Below are positions 2,082-40,149 of a DNA stretch of 64,000 nt, piece after piece. The stretch lies in NCBI RefSeq assembly GCF_003334785.1, contig NZ_QOWV01000008.1; one strand, given 5' to 3'. The translations under genes were made by a program, and so were the position numbers. Source of the DNA: Escherichia coli. Lineage in GTDB: Bacteria > Pseudomonadota > Gammaproteobacteria > Enterobacterales > Enterobacteriaceae. The notes below the pieces were generated by a model, which ran no database searches, was not told where the DNA came from, and saw only the letters and a program-made list of their open reading frames with translations. Each line of letters begins with the position of its first letter. Positions within the stretch are counted from its first letter, which is position 1.

Positions 2082-3482
2082 TTACTGTTTTTCTGGTGGG
2101 AAAATCAGATTCAGCACGATGGCAGTAATACCGCCCGCGGCGATCCCGGAGGAGAGCAGGTTTTTCAGCCATTCAGGGGCAAACTGCAAAATCAGCGGCT
2201 GCTGAGACACGCCCAGACCAACCGCCAGCGACAGCGCGATAATCAGAATCGCCCGACGGTTCAGCGGCTCACGAGAAACGATACGCACACCGGAGGCGGC
2301 GATGGTGCCAAACATTACAAGCGTTGCGCCGCCCAGAACCGGTTCTGGAATGTGTTGTACAAAACCGCTCACTGCCGGGAACAGACCCAGCACGATCAAC
2401 ATCAGCGCGACGACAAAACCGACATAGCGGCTGGCAACACCAGTCAACTGGATCACTCCGTTGTTTTGCCCGAAGCAGGAGTTCGGGAAGGTGTTAAACA
2501 CCGCCGAAACAAACGAGTTCAGGCCGTTTGCCAGCACGCCACCTTTCAGGCGTTTCATGTACAGCGGACCGGACACTGGCTGTTCGGAAACGTCAGAGGT
2601 CGCCGTGATATCGCCAATGGTTTCCAGCGAAGTGATCATAAAGACCAGCATCAGCGGCAGCAGCAGACTCCATTCAATGCCAAGACCGTAATAGAGCGGC
2701 GTTGGCACCATAATCAGTTCTTGCGTCATCGGTTCGTTGCTTTCTGGCAACATGCCCATAAACCACGCCAGCGCATATCCGGCCGCCATCGCAATCACCA
2801 GTGAGGCCACGCGTAAGTAAGGGTTACGTTGACGGTTAAGCAGGATAATTAAGGCTAAGACCACGCCTGCCAGCAGCAGATTTTTCGGTGCGCCGAAGGT
2901 GTTATCGCTCATGGCTGCGTAACCGCCGCCAATGGACGTTAACCCAACCTGAATTAGCGACAGGCCGATAATCATCACCACAACGCCAGAAACCAGCGGC
3001 GTAATAATGCGGCGCGCCAGATGCAGAACGCGGGAGATCACCATCTCGGTGCAACTTGCCAGCATCAACGTGCCGAACAAAGCCGCCATCATGGTAGGAA
3101 CATCAGCACCACCGGTTTTCAGCGCGGTACCGCCCATAATCAGCGGGGCAACAAAGTTGAAGCTGGTGCCCTGAATAGACAACAGCCCGGAGCCAACCGG
3201 ACCCCAGGCCTTAATTTGAATAATCGATGCCACACCGGAGGCAAACAGCGACATACTAATAATGTGTTGCGTGTCTTGTGCCGGTAAACCCAGCGCCTGG
3301 CAGATTAATAGCGCTGGCGTGATCACCGCAACGAACATCGCCAGCAGATGCTGACAGGCGGCAAACAGGGTTTGAGGAAGCGGCGGACGATCTTCAAGAC
3401 GGTAAATCAGTTCGCTGTTTTGAGTCTGCGCAACCGGTTGCGCATTTTCTGACTCGAGGGTGGAAACAGACATCGAAAACAA
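2082..3482 (-). CDS. xanP: Xanthine permease (NCS2 family)
   Basis: 466-aa polytopic membrane protein, recognised as XanP/YicE. Confidence 0.9.
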
Positions 3483-3752
3483 TCCCGTGGTAGCAAAGCG
3501 GGCATTTTAGCTGACCGAAAGAGAAAAGCAAACGTTTGCCACATCCTCATCTAAATATTTAAATGAGATAAATGCACTTTTTTATATAACTTTTGGTATT
3601 TTTCTGCTTAAAATCCATGCCATTTGTTCATTAACAGCTGAGAATTTGACCCAGGAAAGCATAACTCGATACCCGTCATAGTTCATGAAGTTGCCACTGC
3701 GCGATGAAGTATGACGAGTATGAAAGAGTGATGCGGATACAAAGGAGTAACT

Positions 3753-4958
3753 ATGTTTCATCTCGATACTTTAGCAACGCTTGTTGCCGCAACGCTGACG
3801 TTGCTGCTCGGGCGTAAGTTGGTCCATTCCGTCTCCTTTTTGAAGAAATACACCATACCGGAACCTGTTGCGGGTGGTTTGTTGGTGGCGCTGGCGCTAC
3901 TAGTACTGAAAAAAAGCATGGGCTGGGAAGTCAACTTTGATATGTCCCTGCGCGATCCGTTAATGCTGGCTTTCTTCGCCACCATTGGCCTGAACGCCAA
4001 CATTGCCAGTTTGCGTGCCGGTGGGCGTGTGGTTGGCATCTTCTTGATTGTGGTTGTTGGTCTGTTGGTGATGCAAAATGCCATTGGCATTGGTATGGCT
4101 AGCCTGTTAGGGCTTGATCCGCTGATGGGGCTGTTGGCCGGTTCTATTACGCTTTCCGGCGGTCACGGTACGGGCGCTGCGTGGAGTAAATTGTTCATTG
4201 AACGTTATGGCTTCACCAATGCGACGGAAGTGGCGATGGCCTGTGCAACGTTCGGTCTGGTGCTGGGCGGCTTGATTGGCGGTCCGGTGGCGCGCTATCT
4301 GGTGAAACACTCCACCACGCCGAACGGTATTCCGGATGACCAGGAAGTCCCGACGGCGTTTGAAAAGCCGGATGTGGGCCGCATGATCACCTCGTTGGTG
4401 CTGATTGAAACTATCGCGCTGATTGCTATCTGCCTGACGGTGGGGAAAATTGTTGCGCAACTTTTGGCTGGCACTGCTTTTGAACTGCCGACCTTCGTCT
4501 GTGTACTGTTTGTTGGCGTGATTCTGAGCAACGGTCTGTCAATAATGGGCTTTTACCGCGTCTTTGAGCGTGCGGTATCCGTGCTGGGTAACGTAAGCTT
4601 GTCGTTGTTCCTGGCGATGGCGTTGATGGGGCTGAAACTGTGGGAGCTGGCTTCGCTGGCGCTGCCGATGCTGGCGATTCTGGTGGTACAGACCATCTTC
4701 ATGGCGTTGTATGCCATCTTCGTTACCTGGCGCATGATGGGCAAAAACTACGATGCGGCAGTGCTGGCTGCGGGTCACTGTGGTTTTGGCCTCGGTGCAA
4801 CGCCAACGGCAATCGCCAACATGCAGGCGATCACTGAACGCTTTGGCCCGTCGCACATGGCGTTTTTGGTGGTGCCGATGGTCGGTGCGTTCTTTATCGA
4901 TATCGTCAATGCGCTGGTAATTAAGTTGTATTTGATGTTGCCGATTTTTGCCGGTTAA
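3753..4958 (+). CDS. gltS: Sodium/glutamate symporter
   Basis: 401-aa membrane protein, MFHLDTLATLVAATLTLLLG..., divergent from xanP. Confidence 0.9.
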   Translation: MFHLDTLATLVAATLTLLLGRKLVHSVSFLKKYTIPEPVAGGLLVALALLVLKKSMGWEVNFDMSLRDPLMLAFFATIGLNANIASLRAGGRVVGIFLIVVVGLLVMQNAIGIGMASLLGLDPLMGLLAGSITLSGGHGTGAAWSKLFIERYGFTNATEVAMACATFGLVLGGLIGGPVARYLVKHSTTPNGIPDDQEVPTAFEKPDVGRMITSLVLIETIALIAICLTVGKIVAQLLAGTAFELPTFVCVLFVGVILSNGLSIMGFYRVFERAVSVLGNVSLSLFLAMALMGLKLWELASLALPMLAILVVQTIFMALYAIFVTWRMMGKNYDAAVLAAGHCGFGLGATPTAIANMQAITERFGPSHMAFLVVPMVGAFFIDIVNALVIKLYLMLPIFAG

Positions 4959-34382: not shown

Positions 34383-34418
34383 GCCTGCCTGAACTTAATG
34401 TCAGGCAGGCTTTTTTTT
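34383..34418. terminator. Bidirectional terminator between convergent waaK and waaL
   Basis: 11-bp perfect stem gcctgcctga / tcaggcaggc followed by T8; waaL stop codon lies inside the T tract. Confidence 0.6.
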
Positions 34419-35634
34419 ATTTATTCCGCATTGCTAACAGTAAACCAACAATCAAGCCAATTGGTTTGAGATCAACTTCCTCGAAGTTACCTCGAATAAT
34501 ATAAAAGCTTACAAGCGTTAAAAATAGTAGTAATTGACCATTATAAGGAGTGACGACAACTGTTTTAAACGTTGCATTAGCTGTCTCTTTGATAATAGAG
34601 CCATACAGATAAAGTAAAGCGAGTAGTCCAGCCAAACCCGCTGCAAACCAAATTGACAAAACAACGTTGTGTGGCCCAATGGATTGCCTGAACTTCCATG
34701 ACGGAAAATCTACAACACGCTTATTATATATTGCATGGTAAATATCATCGCCGTAGCCATATCCCTTAAGAGGATTTTCCATAATTAATGTCCACGCCGT
34801 ACCTTGAGTACCATTGGTATAGCGATAAGAACTGTCGGTCTGTTGAAGTTTATAAATAAGCCTGTCTTTACCAGCATGATCACCTTTATAGGTAAATACA
34901 CCCACTGCGGCAACAGAAATAACGATGGAAGTCAGCATCAATAATTTCCACTGACGATTTAAGATTAACCATAGCAGAGTCACTATGAATACTGCCAGCC
35001 ATGCACCACGAGACAGCGTTCCTAATAGCAGAAATAAGAAAACTGCACTAAAAATTACGAATGCTATTTTATAAGAGGTTTTCTTGATAAGCCAAAGGTT
35101 TAATAATGCTGGAAACAGAAACACCATTGAATCGGAAATACTACGGTGTTCATAGGTGGAAAATGGCATTATTCCTTTATTATAATCCTGAATATAAAGA
35201 ATAAGTTCAACAAGACAACGTAAGCCAAGTCCGGTAACTAATGAGTATAGTACAATTTTACCAATGCTTTCATTATCTTCATCTTTTAATAATGCAGGTA
35301 TAAGTAAACTATAGGCCAAAAATCCTTTAAGTACCGTATTACTGAATTCTTTAAAACTGATTTTCAGATCAGGTGATATAAAAGTAGCATATAAAAGAAT
35401 GAGTGATAGTGCCAGGACACTATAAAAAAGATTATTTTTATAGAGTACTTTAAATGTTCCCGGAGCACGAGAAACTTGATAGATTACCGTAATAATCATT
35501 AGTATAGATATGATGTGTTTATAACGGGTTATACCATCAAGGAAAAAGGTTGCAATAAAGAGGAATACCAACGCTTTATTCCAGTACGGTTTCCACTTTT
35601 CTTTATTACGTAGCGCCAGCGAGGCTGTTAACAT
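34417..35634 (-). CDS. waaL: O-antigen ligase
   Basis: 405 aa polytopic membrane protein starting MLTASLALRNKEKWKPYWNKALVF. Confidence 0.85.
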   Translation of the reverse strand: MLTASLALRNKEKWKPYWNKALVFLFIATFFLDGITRYKHIISILMIITVIYQVSRAPGTFKVLYKNNLFYSVLALSLILLYATFISPDLKISFKEFSNTVLKGFLAYSLLIPALLKDEDNESIGKIVLYSLVTGLGLRCLVELILYIQDYNKGIMPFSTYEHRSISDSMVFLFPALLNLWLIKKTSYKIAFVIFSAVFLFLLLGTLSRGAWLAVFIVTLLWLILNRQWKLLMLTSIVISVAAVGVFTYKGDHAGKDRLIYKLQQTDSSYRYTNGTQGTAWTLIMENPLKGYGYGDDIYHAIYNKRVVDFPSWKFRQSIGPHNVVLSIWFAAGLAGLLALLYLYGSIIKETANATFKTVVVTPYNGQLLLFLTLVSFYIIRGNFEEVDLKPIGLIVGLLLAMRNK

Positions 35635-35672
35635 TGCTTCTCCACCATCTTAAATAATATATAACGTATTAA

Positions 35673-36629
35673 TCAGGAATTGATTTTATTAAATACCGTT
35701 TCTGCAGTCAGATGAGCAAGATCTTTATCTGGTGCCCTACAAACCACCTGATTCTTCCCATATCCGCCAATTAATCCCGGATCGGTTGGTCCATAAACCG
35801 TGATATTCGGTCGATCCAGTGCTGCAGTTAAATGACTTAACCCAGTGTCTACCGATACCACGAATTTCGCTCCGGCCAGCACACGGGCAACACCTTCCAG
35901 ACTCATCTTCGGCAATACTTCAACATAAGCAAATCCTTCCGCCAGTCGTTTCGCCCGTTTTTCCTCATGCGGCGCACCCCACGGAAGTTTAATGCGAATC
36001 CCTGAATCTGCCAGTAAACCAATCAATTCTCGCCAGTGTTCTTCCGGCCAGTGTTTATCATCACGGGTCGTCGCATGAAGAAATACGGCATATTCGCCAG
36101 CATCTGTAGGCAGGTTCGTCAGAAAATGCTGTGCGATAGCATAATCGCCCTGGGTTTGCGGTTTGCTATAGCCCAGACTTTTGGCAAAAAGTTCGCGGAT
36201 GCGTTCTACGGCGTGCTGCTGTTTTGCAATATGATGTTTACGATTGTAAAACAGGCTGGCTAAAGGTTCGCGAGCGGTTTGCCAGTCCATTCCATGCTTT
36301 ACGCCATGCGCCAGACGCGTCACCAGCGCCGCGCTTTTTACCAGCCCCTGAGCATCGATAACTGCGTCATAGTTCTCTGCTTGTAGCGCTTCACGAAACG
36401 CTTTGCGTTCAGCTTTTATGGGGGCCGAGAACCAGGCTTTACGCCAGCGACGTATTGCCACAGGAATAACTCGCTCAACGGCGGCGTGCCAGGAAGGAAT
36501 CTGTGCGAACCCTTCTTCCACCACCCAGTCAAACTTAATCCCTGGGATTGCCTGCTGGGCATCAGTGAGTGCGGGCAACGTATGGAGAACATCGCCCATC
36601 GACGATGTTTTAACGATCAAAACCCGCAT
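35673..36629 (-). CDS. waaC: LPS heptosyltransferase I
   Basis: 318 aa MRVLIVKTSSMGDVLHTLPALTDA... Confidence 0.9.
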   Translation of the reverse strand: MRVLIVKTSSMGDVLHTLPALTDAQQAIPGIKFDWVVEEGFAQIPSWHAAVERVIPVAIRRWRKAWFSAPIKAERKAFREALQAENYDAVIDAQGLVKSAALVTRLAHGVKHGMDWQTAREPLASLFYNRKHHIAKQQHAVERIRELFAKSLGYSKPQTQGDYAIAQHFLTNLPTDAGEYAVFLHATTRDDKHWPEEHWRELIGLLADSGIRIKLPWGAPHEEKRAKRLAEGFAYVEVLPKMSLEGVARVLAGAKFVVSVDTGLSHLTAALDRPNITVYGPTDPGLIGGYGKNQVVCRAPDKDLAHLTAETVFNKINS

Positions 36630-36632
36630 CCG

Positions 36633-37679
36633 TCAGGCTTCCTCTTGTAACAATAGAGAGTTGAGTTCTTCCAGCACGCGCTGGGGAGTAATGTCGATCA
36701 AGCTCTGGTGATAACCTTCTGCGGCGTCGCCTTTGCGTACTTTGTGATAGCCGGTAATCAGGCGGATCACGCGCGCTTTATGGGATAGCGGCGGTGTGAA
36801 GTCCGGGCTACTCGGACCATACAGGGCAACCAGCGGACGATTGAGCGCCGCCGCAACGTGCATCAGGCCAGAATCGTTAGTGACAATGGCTTTACAGGCT
36901 GCAATCAGGATAACCGCTTGATCAAGCTGTGTTTCCCCCGCCAGGTTCCGGCACCATGCCTGCTGCTCGGTATTTAAAGCGGCAAGAATCTCATTGCCCG
37001 CTTCATGATCTTTCGCCGAGCCAAACAGAACCACTTGATAACCTTCATCAATCAGTTGCTTTGCCAGTTCCGCATAGTGGTAGTGTGGCCAGCGTTTTGC
37101 CGGACCAAACTCCGCACCCGGGCAAAAACCAATCATTGGACGTTCTGATGAAAGCGAAAATTGATTACAGGTATATGATTTTTCACCTTCGCTCACCTGC
37201 AACTGCGGCCATAACAATGGCTGCGGCAGATCTTGTGCGGTACGCATAATACCTTTGTCATAGGCCAGCGCCACATAGCGTTCCACCATCAGCGGCCAGG
37301 CTTCTTTATCCAGCACACGCACATCGTTGAGTAAACCGTAGCGCATTTCGCCGCGCCAGCCGGTGCGATGAGGAATACCCGCGAAGAAAGGCACTAATGC
37401 GGATTTGAAGGAGTTGGGTAAAACGTAGGCGCGGTCGTAACGTTTTTCGCGCAGGCTATGACCCAGCTTGCGGCGTTCGCCAATTTCCAGCGCCCCGTGA
37501 CCAAGCGGCATAGGAATGGCTTCGTTAACTTCCGGCATCCGCGATAATAATGGACGGCACCATGCCGGTGCCATCACGTCGATTATCGCCTGGGGATAGC
37601 GCGCCTGGAGCGTGCGATAGAGACTTTGCGACATCATCATGTCGCCAACCCATGACGGGCCGATCACCAATATTTTCAT
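36633..37679 (-). CDS. waaF: LPS heptosyltransferase II
   Basis: 348 aa MKILVIGPSWVGDMMMSQSLYRTL... Confidence 0.9.
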   Translation of the reverse strand: MKILVIGPSWVGDMMMSQSLYRTLQARYPQAIIDVMAPAWCRPLLSRMPEVNEAIPMPLGHGALEIGERRKLGHSLREKRYDRAYVLPNSFKSALVPFFAGIPHRTGWRGEMRYGLLNDVRVLDKEAWPLMVERYVALAYDKGIMRTAQDLPQPLLWPQLQVSEGEKSYTCNQFSLSSERPMIGFCPGAEFGPAKRWPHYHYAELAKQLIDEGYQVVLFGSAKDHEAGNEILAALNTEQQAWCRNLAGETQLDQAVILIAACKAIVTNDSGLMHVAAALNRPLVALYGPSSPDFTPPLSHKARVIRLITGYHKVRKGDAAEGYHQSLIDITPQRVLEELNSLLLQEEA

Positions 37680-37687
37680 TCACTTCA

Positions 37688-37806
37688 TCCTTCAAGCTGT
37701 CTCTGCGGCGGCTGCCTGCGTTCACTCCGGTCACTTACTTTTGTAAGCTCCCGGAGATTCACTTAGTTGCTGCCTTGATACCGCTCGAATGATTTTGTGA
37801 ATTTAC
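37688..37806. repeat. ERIC/IRU-like intergenic repeat between hldD and waaF
   Basis: Core GTGAATCTCCGGGAGCTTACAAAAGTAAGTGACCGGAGTGAACG (minus strand, 37719-37762) closely resembles the ERIC central inverted repeat as I recall it. Confidence 0.55.
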
Positions 37807-38739
37807 GTTGATGTCGCGATTCAGCCAGGCCATGTATTCCGTTACGCCTTCGGCAACGGTTTTGAACGGTTTGTCATAACCCGCCGCGCGCAGATTCGTC
37901 AGATCTGCCTGCGTGAATGCCTGATAGCGGCCTTTCAGTTTATCCGGGAACGGAATGTATTCGATCTGGCCTTTCTTGTGATAAGCAAGCGTTGCATCGG
38001 CTACCGCCTGGAAGGATTCCGCACGACCAGTACCGAGGTTGAAGATGCCGGAAACGCCATTTTCCAGGAACCACAGGTTTACATCTGCCACGTCGCCAAC
38101 ATAGACGAAGTCGCGTTTAAAGTTCTCGCTACCTTCGAACAGCTTCGGTGATTCACCGTTATTAAGCTGGGTGTTGAGATGGAAAGCGACGCTCGCCATG
38201 CTGCCTTTATGGCCTTCACGCGGTCCATAAACGTTGAAATAACGGAAGCCAACAATCTGTGAGTTTGCTTCCGGCAGAATTTGACGAACATATTCATCAA
38301 ACAGGAATTTCGAGTAACCGTAGACGTTCAACGGTTTTTCGTACTCGCGGGATTCAATAAAGTCGGAAGTGCGACCGCCGTAAGTGGCTGCGGATGAAGC
38401 GTACAGGAACGGGATTTCACGCTCCAGGCAGTAGTGCAGCAGCTCCTTGGAGTATTGATAGTTGTTATCCATCATATACTTGCCGTCCCACTCGGTGGTG
38501 GAAGAGCACGCGCCTTCGTGGAAAATCGCTTCGACATCGCCGAACTCTTCGCCAGCCATAATCTGGATCAGGAAGTCTTCCTTATCCATATAGTCTGCGA
38601 TATTCAGGTCCACCAGGTTCACAAACTTGGTGCCGTCTTTCAGGTTGTCCACCACCAGAATATCGGTGATGCCTTTGTCATTCAGGGCTTTAACGATGTT
38701 GCTGCCGATAAAGCCCGCGCCGCCGGTAACGATGATCAT
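37759..38739 (-). CDS. hldD: ADP-L-glycero-D-manno-heptose-6-epimerase with variant C-terminus
   Basis: Rossmann GGAGFIGS; ORF is 326 aa and ends ...[23 protein letters not shown] instead of the ...AWLNRDA end I recall. Confidence 0.9.
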
Positions 38740-38952
38740 AACTGTAACCTTCGAATTGTGGAGTCAGAGACAATCTCAGACACGAATACTTCTATCATAT
38801 CACTACACGGCGCTGGCTACAGCCATTCACCGAAAGTGGTATGCCTGAGCGTGATTTATGCTTATTTTTTGACAAGTACAAATGCTTCATCTCGTATCAA
38901 CCTATGGCTTTCGGTAATATGTGCTGAAATTTGCCCAGTCTGGAGAATCGCG

Positions 38953-40149
38953 ATGCGTGGAGATTTTTATCAGCAGTTAGCCAACGATCTGGAAACCGCT
39001 CGTGCGGAAGGATTGTTTAAAGAAGAGCGCATTATCACATCCGCTCAACAAGCGGATATCACTGTGGCGGATGGTAGCCACGTCATTAACTTTTGTGCCA
39101 ATAACTACCTGGGGCTGGCGAACCACCCGGAACTGATTGCGGCAGCAAAAGCGGGAATGGATTCTCATGGTTTCGGCATGGCTTCGGTGCGTTTTATTTG
39201 TGGCACTCAGGACAGCCACAAAGAGCTTGAGCAGAAGCTGGCTGCATTCCTGGGGATGGAAGATGCGATTCTCTACTCTTCCTGCTTTGATGCTAACGGT
39301 GGCCTGTTTGAAACACTGCTGGGTGCGGAAGACGCCATTATCTCCGACGCACTGAACCACGCGTCTATTATTGATGGTGTGCGTCTGTGTAAAGCTAAAC
39401 GCTATCGCTATGCCAACAACGATATGCAGGAGCTTGAAGCTCGTCTGAAAGAAGCGCGTGAAGCCGGTGCGCGTCATGTGCTGATTGCCACCGATGGTGT
39501 GTTCTCGATGGACGGCGTGATTGCCAATCTGAAGGGCGTTTGCAATCTGGCAGATAAATACGATGCCCTGGTGATGGTAGACGACTCCCACGCGGTCGGT
39601 TTTGTCGGTGAAAACGGTCGTGGTTCCCATGAATACTGCGATGTGATGGGCCGGGTCGATATTATCACCGGTACGCTTGGTAAAGCGCTGGGCGGGGCTT
39701 CTGGTGGTTATACCGCGGCGCGCAAAGAAGTGGTTGAGTGGCTACGCCAGCGTTCTCGTCCGTACCTGTTCTCCAACTCGCTGGCACCAGCGATTGTCGC
39801 CGCTTCCATCAAAGTGCTGGAGATGGTTGAAGCGGGCAGCGAGCTACGTGACCGTTTGTGGGCGAACGCGCGTCAGTTCCGTGAGCAAATGTCGGCGGCG
39901 GGCTTTACCCTGGCGGGAGCCGATCACGCCATTATTCCGGTCATGCTTGGCGATGCGGTAGTGGCGCAGAAATTTGCTCGTGAGCTGCAAAAAGAGGGGA
40001 TTTACGTCACCGGTTTCTTCTATCCGGTCGTTCCGAAAGGTCAGGCGCGTATTCGTACCCAGATGTCTGCGGCGCATACCTCTGAGCAAATTACGCGCGC
40101 AGTAGAAGCATTCACGCGTATTGGTAAACAACTGGGCGTTATCGCCTGA
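38953..40149 (+). CDS. kbl: 2-amino-3-ketobutyrate CoA ligase
   Basis: 398 aa from [20 protein letters not shown]; the ORF-track 571-aa version is an upstream read-through. Confidence 0.9.

Follow-up and report, generated by a model that had tools for sequence, protein, structure and literature searches.

Introduction

Why should hldD (rfaD), a gene for lipopolysaccharide (LPS), end inside a copy of a dispersed repeat, and is that copy a recent accident or a settled part of its operon? The question is raised by a 64,000-nt stretch of Escherichia coli DNA (hereafter the window; NCBI RefSeq assembly GCF_003334785.1, contig NZ_QOWV01000008.1), in which an ERIC element makes up the junction between hldD and the next gene, waaF (rfaF). 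ERICs are used everywhere for strain typing, and we know of very few individual copies with a documented role; the family, also called IRU or RU-1, is reportedly treated by Sharples & Lloyd 1990, Hulton et al. 1991 and Wilson & Sharp 2006. An earlier note on this DNA held that an ERIC-like repeat had been inserted at the hldD stop and had rewritten the HldD C-terminus. On the comparison of junctions across genera, what we call the filled junction is evidently an old conserved allele, a single ERIC copy shared by E. coli and 17 other species, and not a fresh insertion.

Results

The element is a genuine ERIC. Against the E. coli consensus of Wilson & Sharp, taken from its reprinting as the reverse complement in Delihas 2007 (PMC2759123, Table 1a), it aligns ungapped over consensus positions 7-119 with 79.6% identity and a score of 111, as compared to a mean of 16 and a maximum of 26 for 500 dinucleotide shuffles; alignment to the consensus in the opposite orientation gave nothing, and identity to the Salmonella element SeRU-1 is 78%. 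The central inverted-repeat core of the ERIC (GAGCTTACnnAAGTAAGTGAC, in the region of the ERIC1R/ERIC2 primers) is matched exactly and occurs once in the window, where 0.01 chance matches would be expected, and the bases on either side of it (CTCCGG/CCGGAG) are a compensated variant of the consensus CCCCAG/CTGGGG. A strict 44-nt pattern of the ERIC primer region, allowing up to 3 mismatches, has no match in the window because the stem carries four compensated changes. The predicted hairpin has a minimum free energy (MFE) of -52.5 kcal/mol (z = -5.8), and none of 200 shuffles was as stable. The earlier note was thus right about the repeat, and its span of 37688-37806 is in the right place; the full footprint, an extrapolation of the ungapped consensus alignment (Table 1), is slightly wider and takes in the waaF ATG. 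Rfam holds no ERIC family, and its sole match to the element, over the full length, is V_AS5 (RF02818, Vibrio RNA AS5), at 29.7 bits against a gathering score of 96, which only reflects the ERIC-like hairpin. No promoter-like or terminator-like consensus sites were found in or next to the element.

Besides its 127-nt footprint, its 80% ungapped identity, its exact core and its long imperfect hairpin, the element shares with the family that copies are dispersed through the genome (all 5,426 complete E. coli genomes have ERIC family matches, at 2-17 places each, median 11), that it lies inside a transcription unit, and that it is present in some strains and absent from others. It differs in its termini, which read ATTCAC...GTGAAT rather than TATA...TATA, and in not being confined to intergenic DNA: the last 14 sense codons of hldD take up 42 of its 127 nt, the 3-nt stop comes next, and the waaF start codon forms its last 3 nt. 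A further difference is its conservation at one locus over at least nine genera.

Comparison with an E. coli junction of the ordinary kind, which the earlier note had proposed as a check, shows how much has changed. In K-12 and in EC11, the closest E. coli allele without the element, HldD has 310 residues ending in NRDA and 9 nt separate its stop from the waaF ATG, much as the earlier note had it; in the window, residues 1-309 are identical to those of the crystallised E. coli enzyme (PDB 1EQ2, 310 aa) and the gap is 79 nt. When the junctions were pulled out by anchored extraction, the distance from CGCGAC to the waaF ATG was 133 nt in the window (37812..37680) and 15 nt in K-12, a net gain of 118 bp, and the 133-nt segment holds the last 17 hldD codons, the hldD stop, the 79-nt gap and the waaF Shine-Dalgarno (SD) sequence. 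The 15 nt of K-12 are GCATAAGAGCTCTGC (GCA TAA GAGCTCTGC), no part of which is retained at the window junction. Relative to K-12, then, the last codon, the stop and the spacer are replaced, and there is no clean insertion. An ERIC does sit at the stop, as had been claimed, but as a replacement and not as a novel insertion into a K-12-type junction. The open reading frame (ORF) translation bears out a frame running 17 codons into the element to give a 326-aa HldD; as for a rewritten C-terminus, the 17 codons are new, but A310 is the only native residue to change, and no conservation of the tail as a peptide is seen. The gene order places the element inside the hldD-waaF-waaC-waaL operon, as stated. 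What had been missed is that the 3' end of the element supplies the SD and the ATG of waaF.

Within E. coli, the filled junction was found at 99% identity or better in 480 of the 5,426 complete genomes (8.8%), and all the others carry the 118-bp-shorter form. The 981-nt rfaD is annotated in RefSeq as WP_000587766.1, and 1,000 contigs or more in the protein collection encode exactly this 326-aa protein. The earlier note had expected reference alleles to lack this product and the element to resemble ERIC; the second expectation was borne out, but the product is present in those 480 genomes and in RefSeq. A protein-database search with a 42-aa C-terminal fragment returned only short partial proteins and nothing on taxonomic spread. 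In clustering at 90% identity, the 326-aa HldD falls into a cluster that is, oddly, represented by a 352-aa RfaF and contains both HldD and RfaF proteins, perhaps through fused or mis-called ORFs across the junction.

The absence of the element from K-12 and from most E. coli genomes, in a family of mobile elements whose insertions duplicate TA (PMC2229807 Table 1), is what one would expect of a recent, strain-specific transposition into a K-12-type hldD stop region. We regard such an event as scarcely credible. Besides the 480 genomes that share the element at 99% identity or better, every filled genome carries just one near-identical copy, which is invariably the one at rfaD, and none has a second; the next-best ERIC paralog (megablast) is 85.7% identical and the best plasmid match at most 83.5%, so a recent transposition would have had no donor within the genome. 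The K-12 spacer GAGCTCTGC is missing, the length of the filled junction fits an empty site of 17 nt and not that of E. coli (24 nt), and, as set out below, orthologous junctions occur in 17 other species. As to plasmids, ERIC-like copies of 60-83.5% identity lie on 218 plasmid records, 160 of them from Salmonella and most of them conjugative, and some 'plasmid' records of 4.9-5.4 Mb are evidently chromosomes.

The filled allele goes with a particular waa locus. Its gene content (waaZ, an N-acetylglucosamine transferase and this waaL) is what we take to be the R2 core type, and waaL of the window type is found at 99% identity or better in 481 genomes, as compared to 480 with a filled junction. 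Two sampled genomes with the same gene set and waaL at 97-98% identity have an empty junction, while two with waaL at 99.9% or better have a filled one. Judging from these counts and the four spot checks, the element apparently marks, in E. coli, one haplotype of the R2-like waa locus. The R2-like gene set itself falls into two E. coli haplotypes (window 34417-37679; L085/L086 versus L087/L088): a major one of about 480 genomes with waaL at least 99% identical to the window and with the ERIC, and a minor one of about 20 genomes with waaL at 90-98%, both sampled members of which are without it. No imported recombination tract was seen in the E. coli filled allele, its differences from K-12 and EC11 (3-4%) being evenly spread; only waaF +10 and +27 set it apart from all Escherichia empty alleles, and markers specific to Escherichia are found in the immediate flanks. 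For this allele, import and ancient polymorphism are indistinguishable.

The antiquity of the junction is seen outside E. coli. In a scan of HldD in one genome per species (80 loci), the filled junction was found in 17 species besides E. coli, in at least eight other genera: Citrobacter portucalensis, Citrobacter sp. wls619, Citrobacter sp. Cu233, C. sedlakii, Enterobacter hormaechei subsp. hoffmannii, Enterobacter sp. 10-1, Enterobacter sp. JUb54, Superficieibacter electus, Klebsiella oxytoca, K. michiganensis, Pseudocitrobacter faecalis, Phytobacter diazotrophicus, P. ursingii, Raoultella ornithinolytica, R. terrigena, Buttiauxella noackiae and one record labelled Chryseobacterium. The remaining 62 loci are empty and read GAC GCR TAA, 1-19 nt, ATG, most commonly as CGCGACGCGTAAGTATG. 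All filled copies share differences from the E. coli and Salmonella ERIC consensus, most clearly the right end ...GCAGAGACAGCTTGAAGGATGAAGTGAATG, and because these differences are specific to the locus the copies are best read as orthologous. The hldD and waaF flanks, by comparison, group by genus without regard to the state of the junction (the filled B. noackiae, for example, is nearest the empty B. massiliensis, with 0.90 third-position identity), which implies that the state has switched repeatedly between close relatives, most plausibly through homologous exchange within the almost invariant codons that border the junction. Some horizontal exchange of the junction itself is likely because five species share an identical linker between the last native codon and the element.

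Several of these loci have peculiarities of their own. In Citrobacter sp. Cu233 (L008, ~3478-3760) the orthologous ERIC is 281 nt long, with an extra segment of about 70 nt in each arm, each starting GTGACAAAT(T/C)(C/T)GTCTGGAAC..ATTTGAAC, suggestive of another small repeat nested within the ERIC; its hldD stops early, after NRDNATN. R. terrigena (L030) and Enterobacter sp. 10-1 (L039) are missing 14 nt of the ERIC 5' arm (alignment A2 columns 34-47), and have an 11-aa tail, a weaker hairpin and an opening cost at the waaF ribosome binding site (RBS) of about 5 kcal/mol. Genus labels seem to be loose here, since the flanks of Enterobacter sp. 10-1 place it with R. terrigena and those of Enterobacter sp. 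JUb54 place it with R. ornithinolytica. Two contigs of 'Bacillota bacterium MAG OH_SDB_141' (L004 and L020) carry an hldD about 99-100% identical to that of E. coli, one filled and one empty, and 'Chryseobacterium sp. 18061' (L018) has an Enterobacteriaceae hldD-ERIC-waaF locus; all three are probably contamination or mislabelled records in the collection of species representatives. The empty 16-nt spacers of four Buttiauxella and Dryocola loci (L074, L080, L081 and L082), GCAGG(T/C)AG(C/T)CTGACG(C/T), have a 10-mer (GCAGGTAGCC) in common with the ERIC 3' arm. As a possible ERIC remnant in the longer empty spacers, this 10-mer has a nominal p of ~0.01 and is non-significant over the roughly 30 spacers tested.

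Lengths offer a clue to where the filled junction arose. From CGCGAC through ATG it spans 142 nt in the window and in most species, which equals the commonest empty junction (17 nt) plus 125 nt for an ERIC with its TA duplication; an E. coli empty junction of 24 nt would predict 149 nt, and the E. coli filled allele accordingly did not arise in an E. coli-type site. A modelled insertion of the consensus ERIC reads through in the same frame to the same core TGA, giving RDAYTQNNSSCSKAASE and then stop, as compared to RDAATQNHSGGIKAANE and then stop in B. noackiae. In the latter species GAC-GCA is followed directly by an ERIC-like terminus and the right end is ...GTG-TA-TG, ends that would be compatible with a TA target within the stop and start codons or adjacent to them. 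In the window, where both ends of the element have diverged, no duplicated TA can be made out. The origin may thus have been a TA-duplicating insertion into a 17-nt junction, CGCGAC-GCR-TAA-GT-ATG, which would have destroyed the TAA stop or fused hldD past it.

Once in place, the element appears to have been held far more constant than its surroundings. Averaged over the 136 species pairs among 17 orthologs, identity is 0.874 for the ERIC body and 0.922 for its 3' arm, the most conserved part, but 0.573 for the 9-nt linker and 0.572 for 4-fold degenerate sites in the adjoining 600 nt of hldD and 600 nt of waaF; every segment of the element lies at 0.79-0.95. The consensus structure of the 17 orthologs has 32 pairs, with 97% of cells paired, and in these sequences, which are related by descent, 10 of the 32 pairs show double-sided compensatory changes, a number reached in none of 500 column shuffles and compared to 0-4 when the partners are slid by 1-3 columns. 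Two of the compensated pairs belong to the basal helix beside the AUG; as an example, the C>T change that creates the Klebsiella stop has a G>A counterpart in the opposite arm.

This bears on a second possibility, namely that the element is a neutral passenger, a selfish or relic miniature inverted-repeat transposable element of which only the last ~20 nt are constrained, as the waaF RBS, the rest of the pattern being produced by recurrent short-patch recombination through the near-invariant flanking codons. Both states occur in the same genera while the flanks group by genus, which points to frequent flips of state; the near-invariant flanks could have served as recombination anchors across genera, the linker is identical across genera, the tail evolves neutrally, and the 14-nt arm deletion has been tolerated in two lineages. 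Such a passenger should not, however, show conservation of all its segments (79-90%, against 57% for neutral sites) instead of the RBS alone, next to a linker that is itself at the neutral level. Nor do species with identical linkers have more closely matching bodies (~93% for C. sedlakii and Enterobacter sp. JUb54, 94% for E. coli and C. sedlakii), and compensatory changes keep 97% of cells paired. We consider a neutral passenger unlikely, although it has the best claim of the alternatives discussed here.

The protein tail, by contrast, shows little sign of selection. The hldD stop always falls in the ERIC 5' arm (alignment columns 22-60), at five different positions, and tails are 5, 7, 8, 11, 15 or 17 aa long depending on the species. 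That the 17 residues themselves alter HldD activity, oligomerisation or turnover might be argued from the eight species that keep a near-identical 17-aa tail; in these, the ERIC-coded variant sites are 7 nonsynonymous and 3 synonymous, a neutral-like ratio indicating that the similarity follows conservation of the nucleotides or the structure. Nine other species end the tail at 5-15 aa, with stops at four other positions, and of the native enzyme only A310 is changed. A functional tail is therefore very improbable, and judging from the substitution pattern the 17 residues are a tolerated by-product, evolving neutrally as a peptide.

Fusions of RU-1/ERIC to the 3' ends of genes have precedents, such as the amidase ECA3499 of E. 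carotovora and YPO3245 of Y. pestis (Delihas 2007, PMC2759123). As in those, the normal stop has been removed or replaced and the C-terminus of a housekeeping enzyme extended past its conserved domain, by an extension whose function is unknown or neutral. Those fusions, however, read the reverse complement, in the 42-aa RU-1 frame YTRHISSCSC... (or the 41-aa RU-1f), whereas hldD reads the Wilson & Sharp strand and stops after ~15 codons; its tail matches the consensus frame, YTQNNSSCSKAASE and then stop, and is unrelated to the RU-1 peptide. Neither rfaD nor hldD is among the fusion cases listed there.

Coordinates of the junction and of the surrounding genes are given in Table 1. In K-12, yibB (htrL) lies between kbl and rfaD (L001 1-720), whereas kbl directly adjoins rfaD in the window (38740-38950), in L73, in EC11 (L003) and in the other sampled E. 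coli loci. Two entries of the ORF list are artefacts: an 80-aa ORF (37550..37792, +) that is an antisense read-through of the ERIC, with a translation resembling the RU-1f frame of Delihas, and a 571-aa ORF (38434-40149, +) that is kbl, lengthened upstream as far as a distant GTG and running antisense to hldD.

Table 1. Features of the hldD-waaF junction and adjoining genes, in window coordinates
Feature	Position	Strand	Basis or remark
ERIC (IRU/RU-1) element, 127-nt footprint including the waaF start codon; the hldD-sense strand has the Wilson & Sharp consensus orientation	37677..37803	-	consensus alignment
Long imperfect RNA hairpin; 5' arm in hldD tail codons, 3' arm with the waaF RBS	37678..37802	-	predicted fold
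hldD (rfaD) coding sequence, 326-aa allele	37759..38739	-	ORF translation; RefSeq WP_000587766.1 is the same allele
9-nt linker ATCAACGTA (codons I310, N311, V312) between the D309 codon and the consensus-alignable ERIC; varies among species	37804..37812	-	
17 extra HldD codons, in place of the single native residue A310	37762..37812	-	ORF translation
hldD stop TGA, supplied by the ERIC (TGA of ...AAGTGAATC, directly 5' of the central stem)	37759..37761	-	consensus ERIC in the same frame stops at the same place
waaF SD AAGGA, in the ERIC 3' arm, paired with hldD tail codons in the MFE hairpin	37688..37692	-	invariant in 17/17 orthologs
waaF start codon ATG, last 3 nt of the ERIC footprint; A and U paired in the basal helix	37677..37679	-	
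waaF (rfaF) coding sequence, next operon gene	36633..37679	-	ORF list
waaC	35673..36629	-	ORF list
waaL	34417..35634	-	ORF list

Discussion

One could envision a role for the conserved element at the level of the mRNA. The earlier note had supposed that the hairpin could affect downstream expression, which is plausible. In the polycistronic transcript the element would fold on itself as a long hairpin, with the waaF SD and AUG paired to hldD tail codons in its basal helices, and a free ribosome would be expected to initiate poorly on waaF. Ribosomes finishing hldD would enter the 5' arm, melt the stem and expose the waaF site, so that translation of waaF could stay tied to that of hldD despite a stop-to-start distance of 79-116 nt in filled alleles, as compared to 1-19 nt in empty ones. 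Coupling in filled alleles would thus need melting of the hairpin, whereas in empty alleles the terminating ribosome is predicted to sit on the waaF site. Computed thermodynamically over positions -14 to +3, the cost of opening the RBS on free mRNA is 12.9 kcal/mol for the window and 3.8 for K-12, and for the window it falls to 6.6 kcal/mol with a ribosome footprint at the hldD stop; in the species with an early stop (Klebsiella, Phytobacter), it is ~10 kcal/mol on free mRNA and 1-2 with a ribosome at the stop. That a retained ERIC hides the waaF RBS until ribosomes translating hldD open the hairpin is a reading that we put forward tentatively, as one that may well be right but falls somewhat short of probable.

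Translational coupling through intercistronic hairpins that sequester an RBS is general in bacterial operons and RNA phages. The likeness would lie in a downstream SD and AUG that pair with upstream coding sequence and are opened by the ribosomes of the upstream cistron; the hldD-waaF case would be unlike these in that the pairing partner is ready-made, the two strands of the helix being the arms of a mobile-element palindrome.

Alternatively, the element could act on the stability of the mRNA. Stop-codon-overlapping ERICs of Yersinia reportedly modulate the stability of upstream mRNA (De Gregorio et al. 2005). As three papers summarise it, ribosomes that enter such an ERIC keep it from folding, and an RNase E site in its 3' inverted repeat is thereby unmasked (PMC2229807, PMC3184786, PMC10969869). 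If this held for hldD, its mRNA would decay faster than that of waaFCL, lowering HldD relative to the transferases. The geometry described in those papers is the same, with an element over the upstream stop codon, between two co-transcribed genes, whose folding is interfered with by translating ribosomes that enter the 5' arm; for hldD and waaFCL, co-transcription across the ERIC would follow from the known operon. The 3' arm is also the most conserved part of the element, but its conservation is equally explained by the waaF RBS. In the window the 3' arm holds, in addition, the RBS and start codon of the downstream gene, and an effect on downstream translation would be expected, which the Yersinia model in those summaries does not include. 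We give such a destabiliser a small chance as the main explanation; it is compatible with coupling, and the same ribosome-dependent unfolding could both open waaF and expose an RNase E site that adjusts the stability of hldD mRNA.

Several observations weigh against a coupling hairpin conserved by selection on an old ERIC. The coupling model rests on thermodynamic prediction, and the predicted contrast is moderate, since opening costs overlap between empty (3.6-10.6 kcal/mol) and filled junctions (1.6-15.7 kcal/mol). Where the tail is 17 aa long, the basal helix lies behind a ribosome halted at the stop, so that such a ribosome brings the cost down only by half. The hairpin is weakened in the two lineages with the 14-nt deletion (R. 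terrigena and Enterobacter sp. 10-1) and also in L018, and both junction states coexist in many genera, which implies a fitness effect that is small or dependent on context. Some of the covariation, that of the central stem in particular, could come from exchange between ERIC subfamilies and not from selection in place, and the high conservation could be due in part to short-patch horizontal exchange, the identical linker AGCGATACA being found in five species of several genera. Finally, outside B. noackiae both ends of the element have diverged, and the exact TA target cannot be reconstructed.

Taking these points together, the explanation that we favour, and hold to be probable as a whole, is an old ERIC that forms the hldD-waaF junction, with a coupling hairpin and a by-product tail. 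A more ambitious version, in which the ERIC has been domesticated as a conserved intercistronic RNA switch of the LPS inner-core operon that sets the HldD:WaaF ratio by ribosome-dependent unfolding (through coupling, RNase E access or both), and is kept as a presence/absence polymorphism across species of Enterobacteriaceae because each junction type is suited to a different context of core or envelope, is speculative, and we think it rather unlikely. ERIC insertion polymorphism among E. coli strains (PMC10969869, in a passage citing Wilson & Sharp 2006), ERIC hairpins in operons and RU-1 C-terminal fusions (PMC2759123) have already been published; searches of the literature that combined ERIC with hldD/waaF or rfaD/rfaF turned up no paper on this locus.

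In practical terms, the 326-aa HldD is a normal, common allele and should not be annotated as a frameshift or an assembly error, and presence or absence of the ERIC at this site makes one band-level difference in ERIC-PCR between lineages. Beyond this, the finding is more than routine in that a single copy is conserved at this operon junction from genus to genus, where it serves both as the stop of one gene and as the RBS and start of the next. It constitutes the whole junction between two LPS genes that are essential for fitness, and over at least nine genera it is far more constant than the neutral sites beside it. Because a natural empty allele coexists with it, even within one core-type gene set of E. 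coli, isogenic or natural comparisons could put directly to the test a control of translational coupling or of mRNA stability by an ERIC hairpin.

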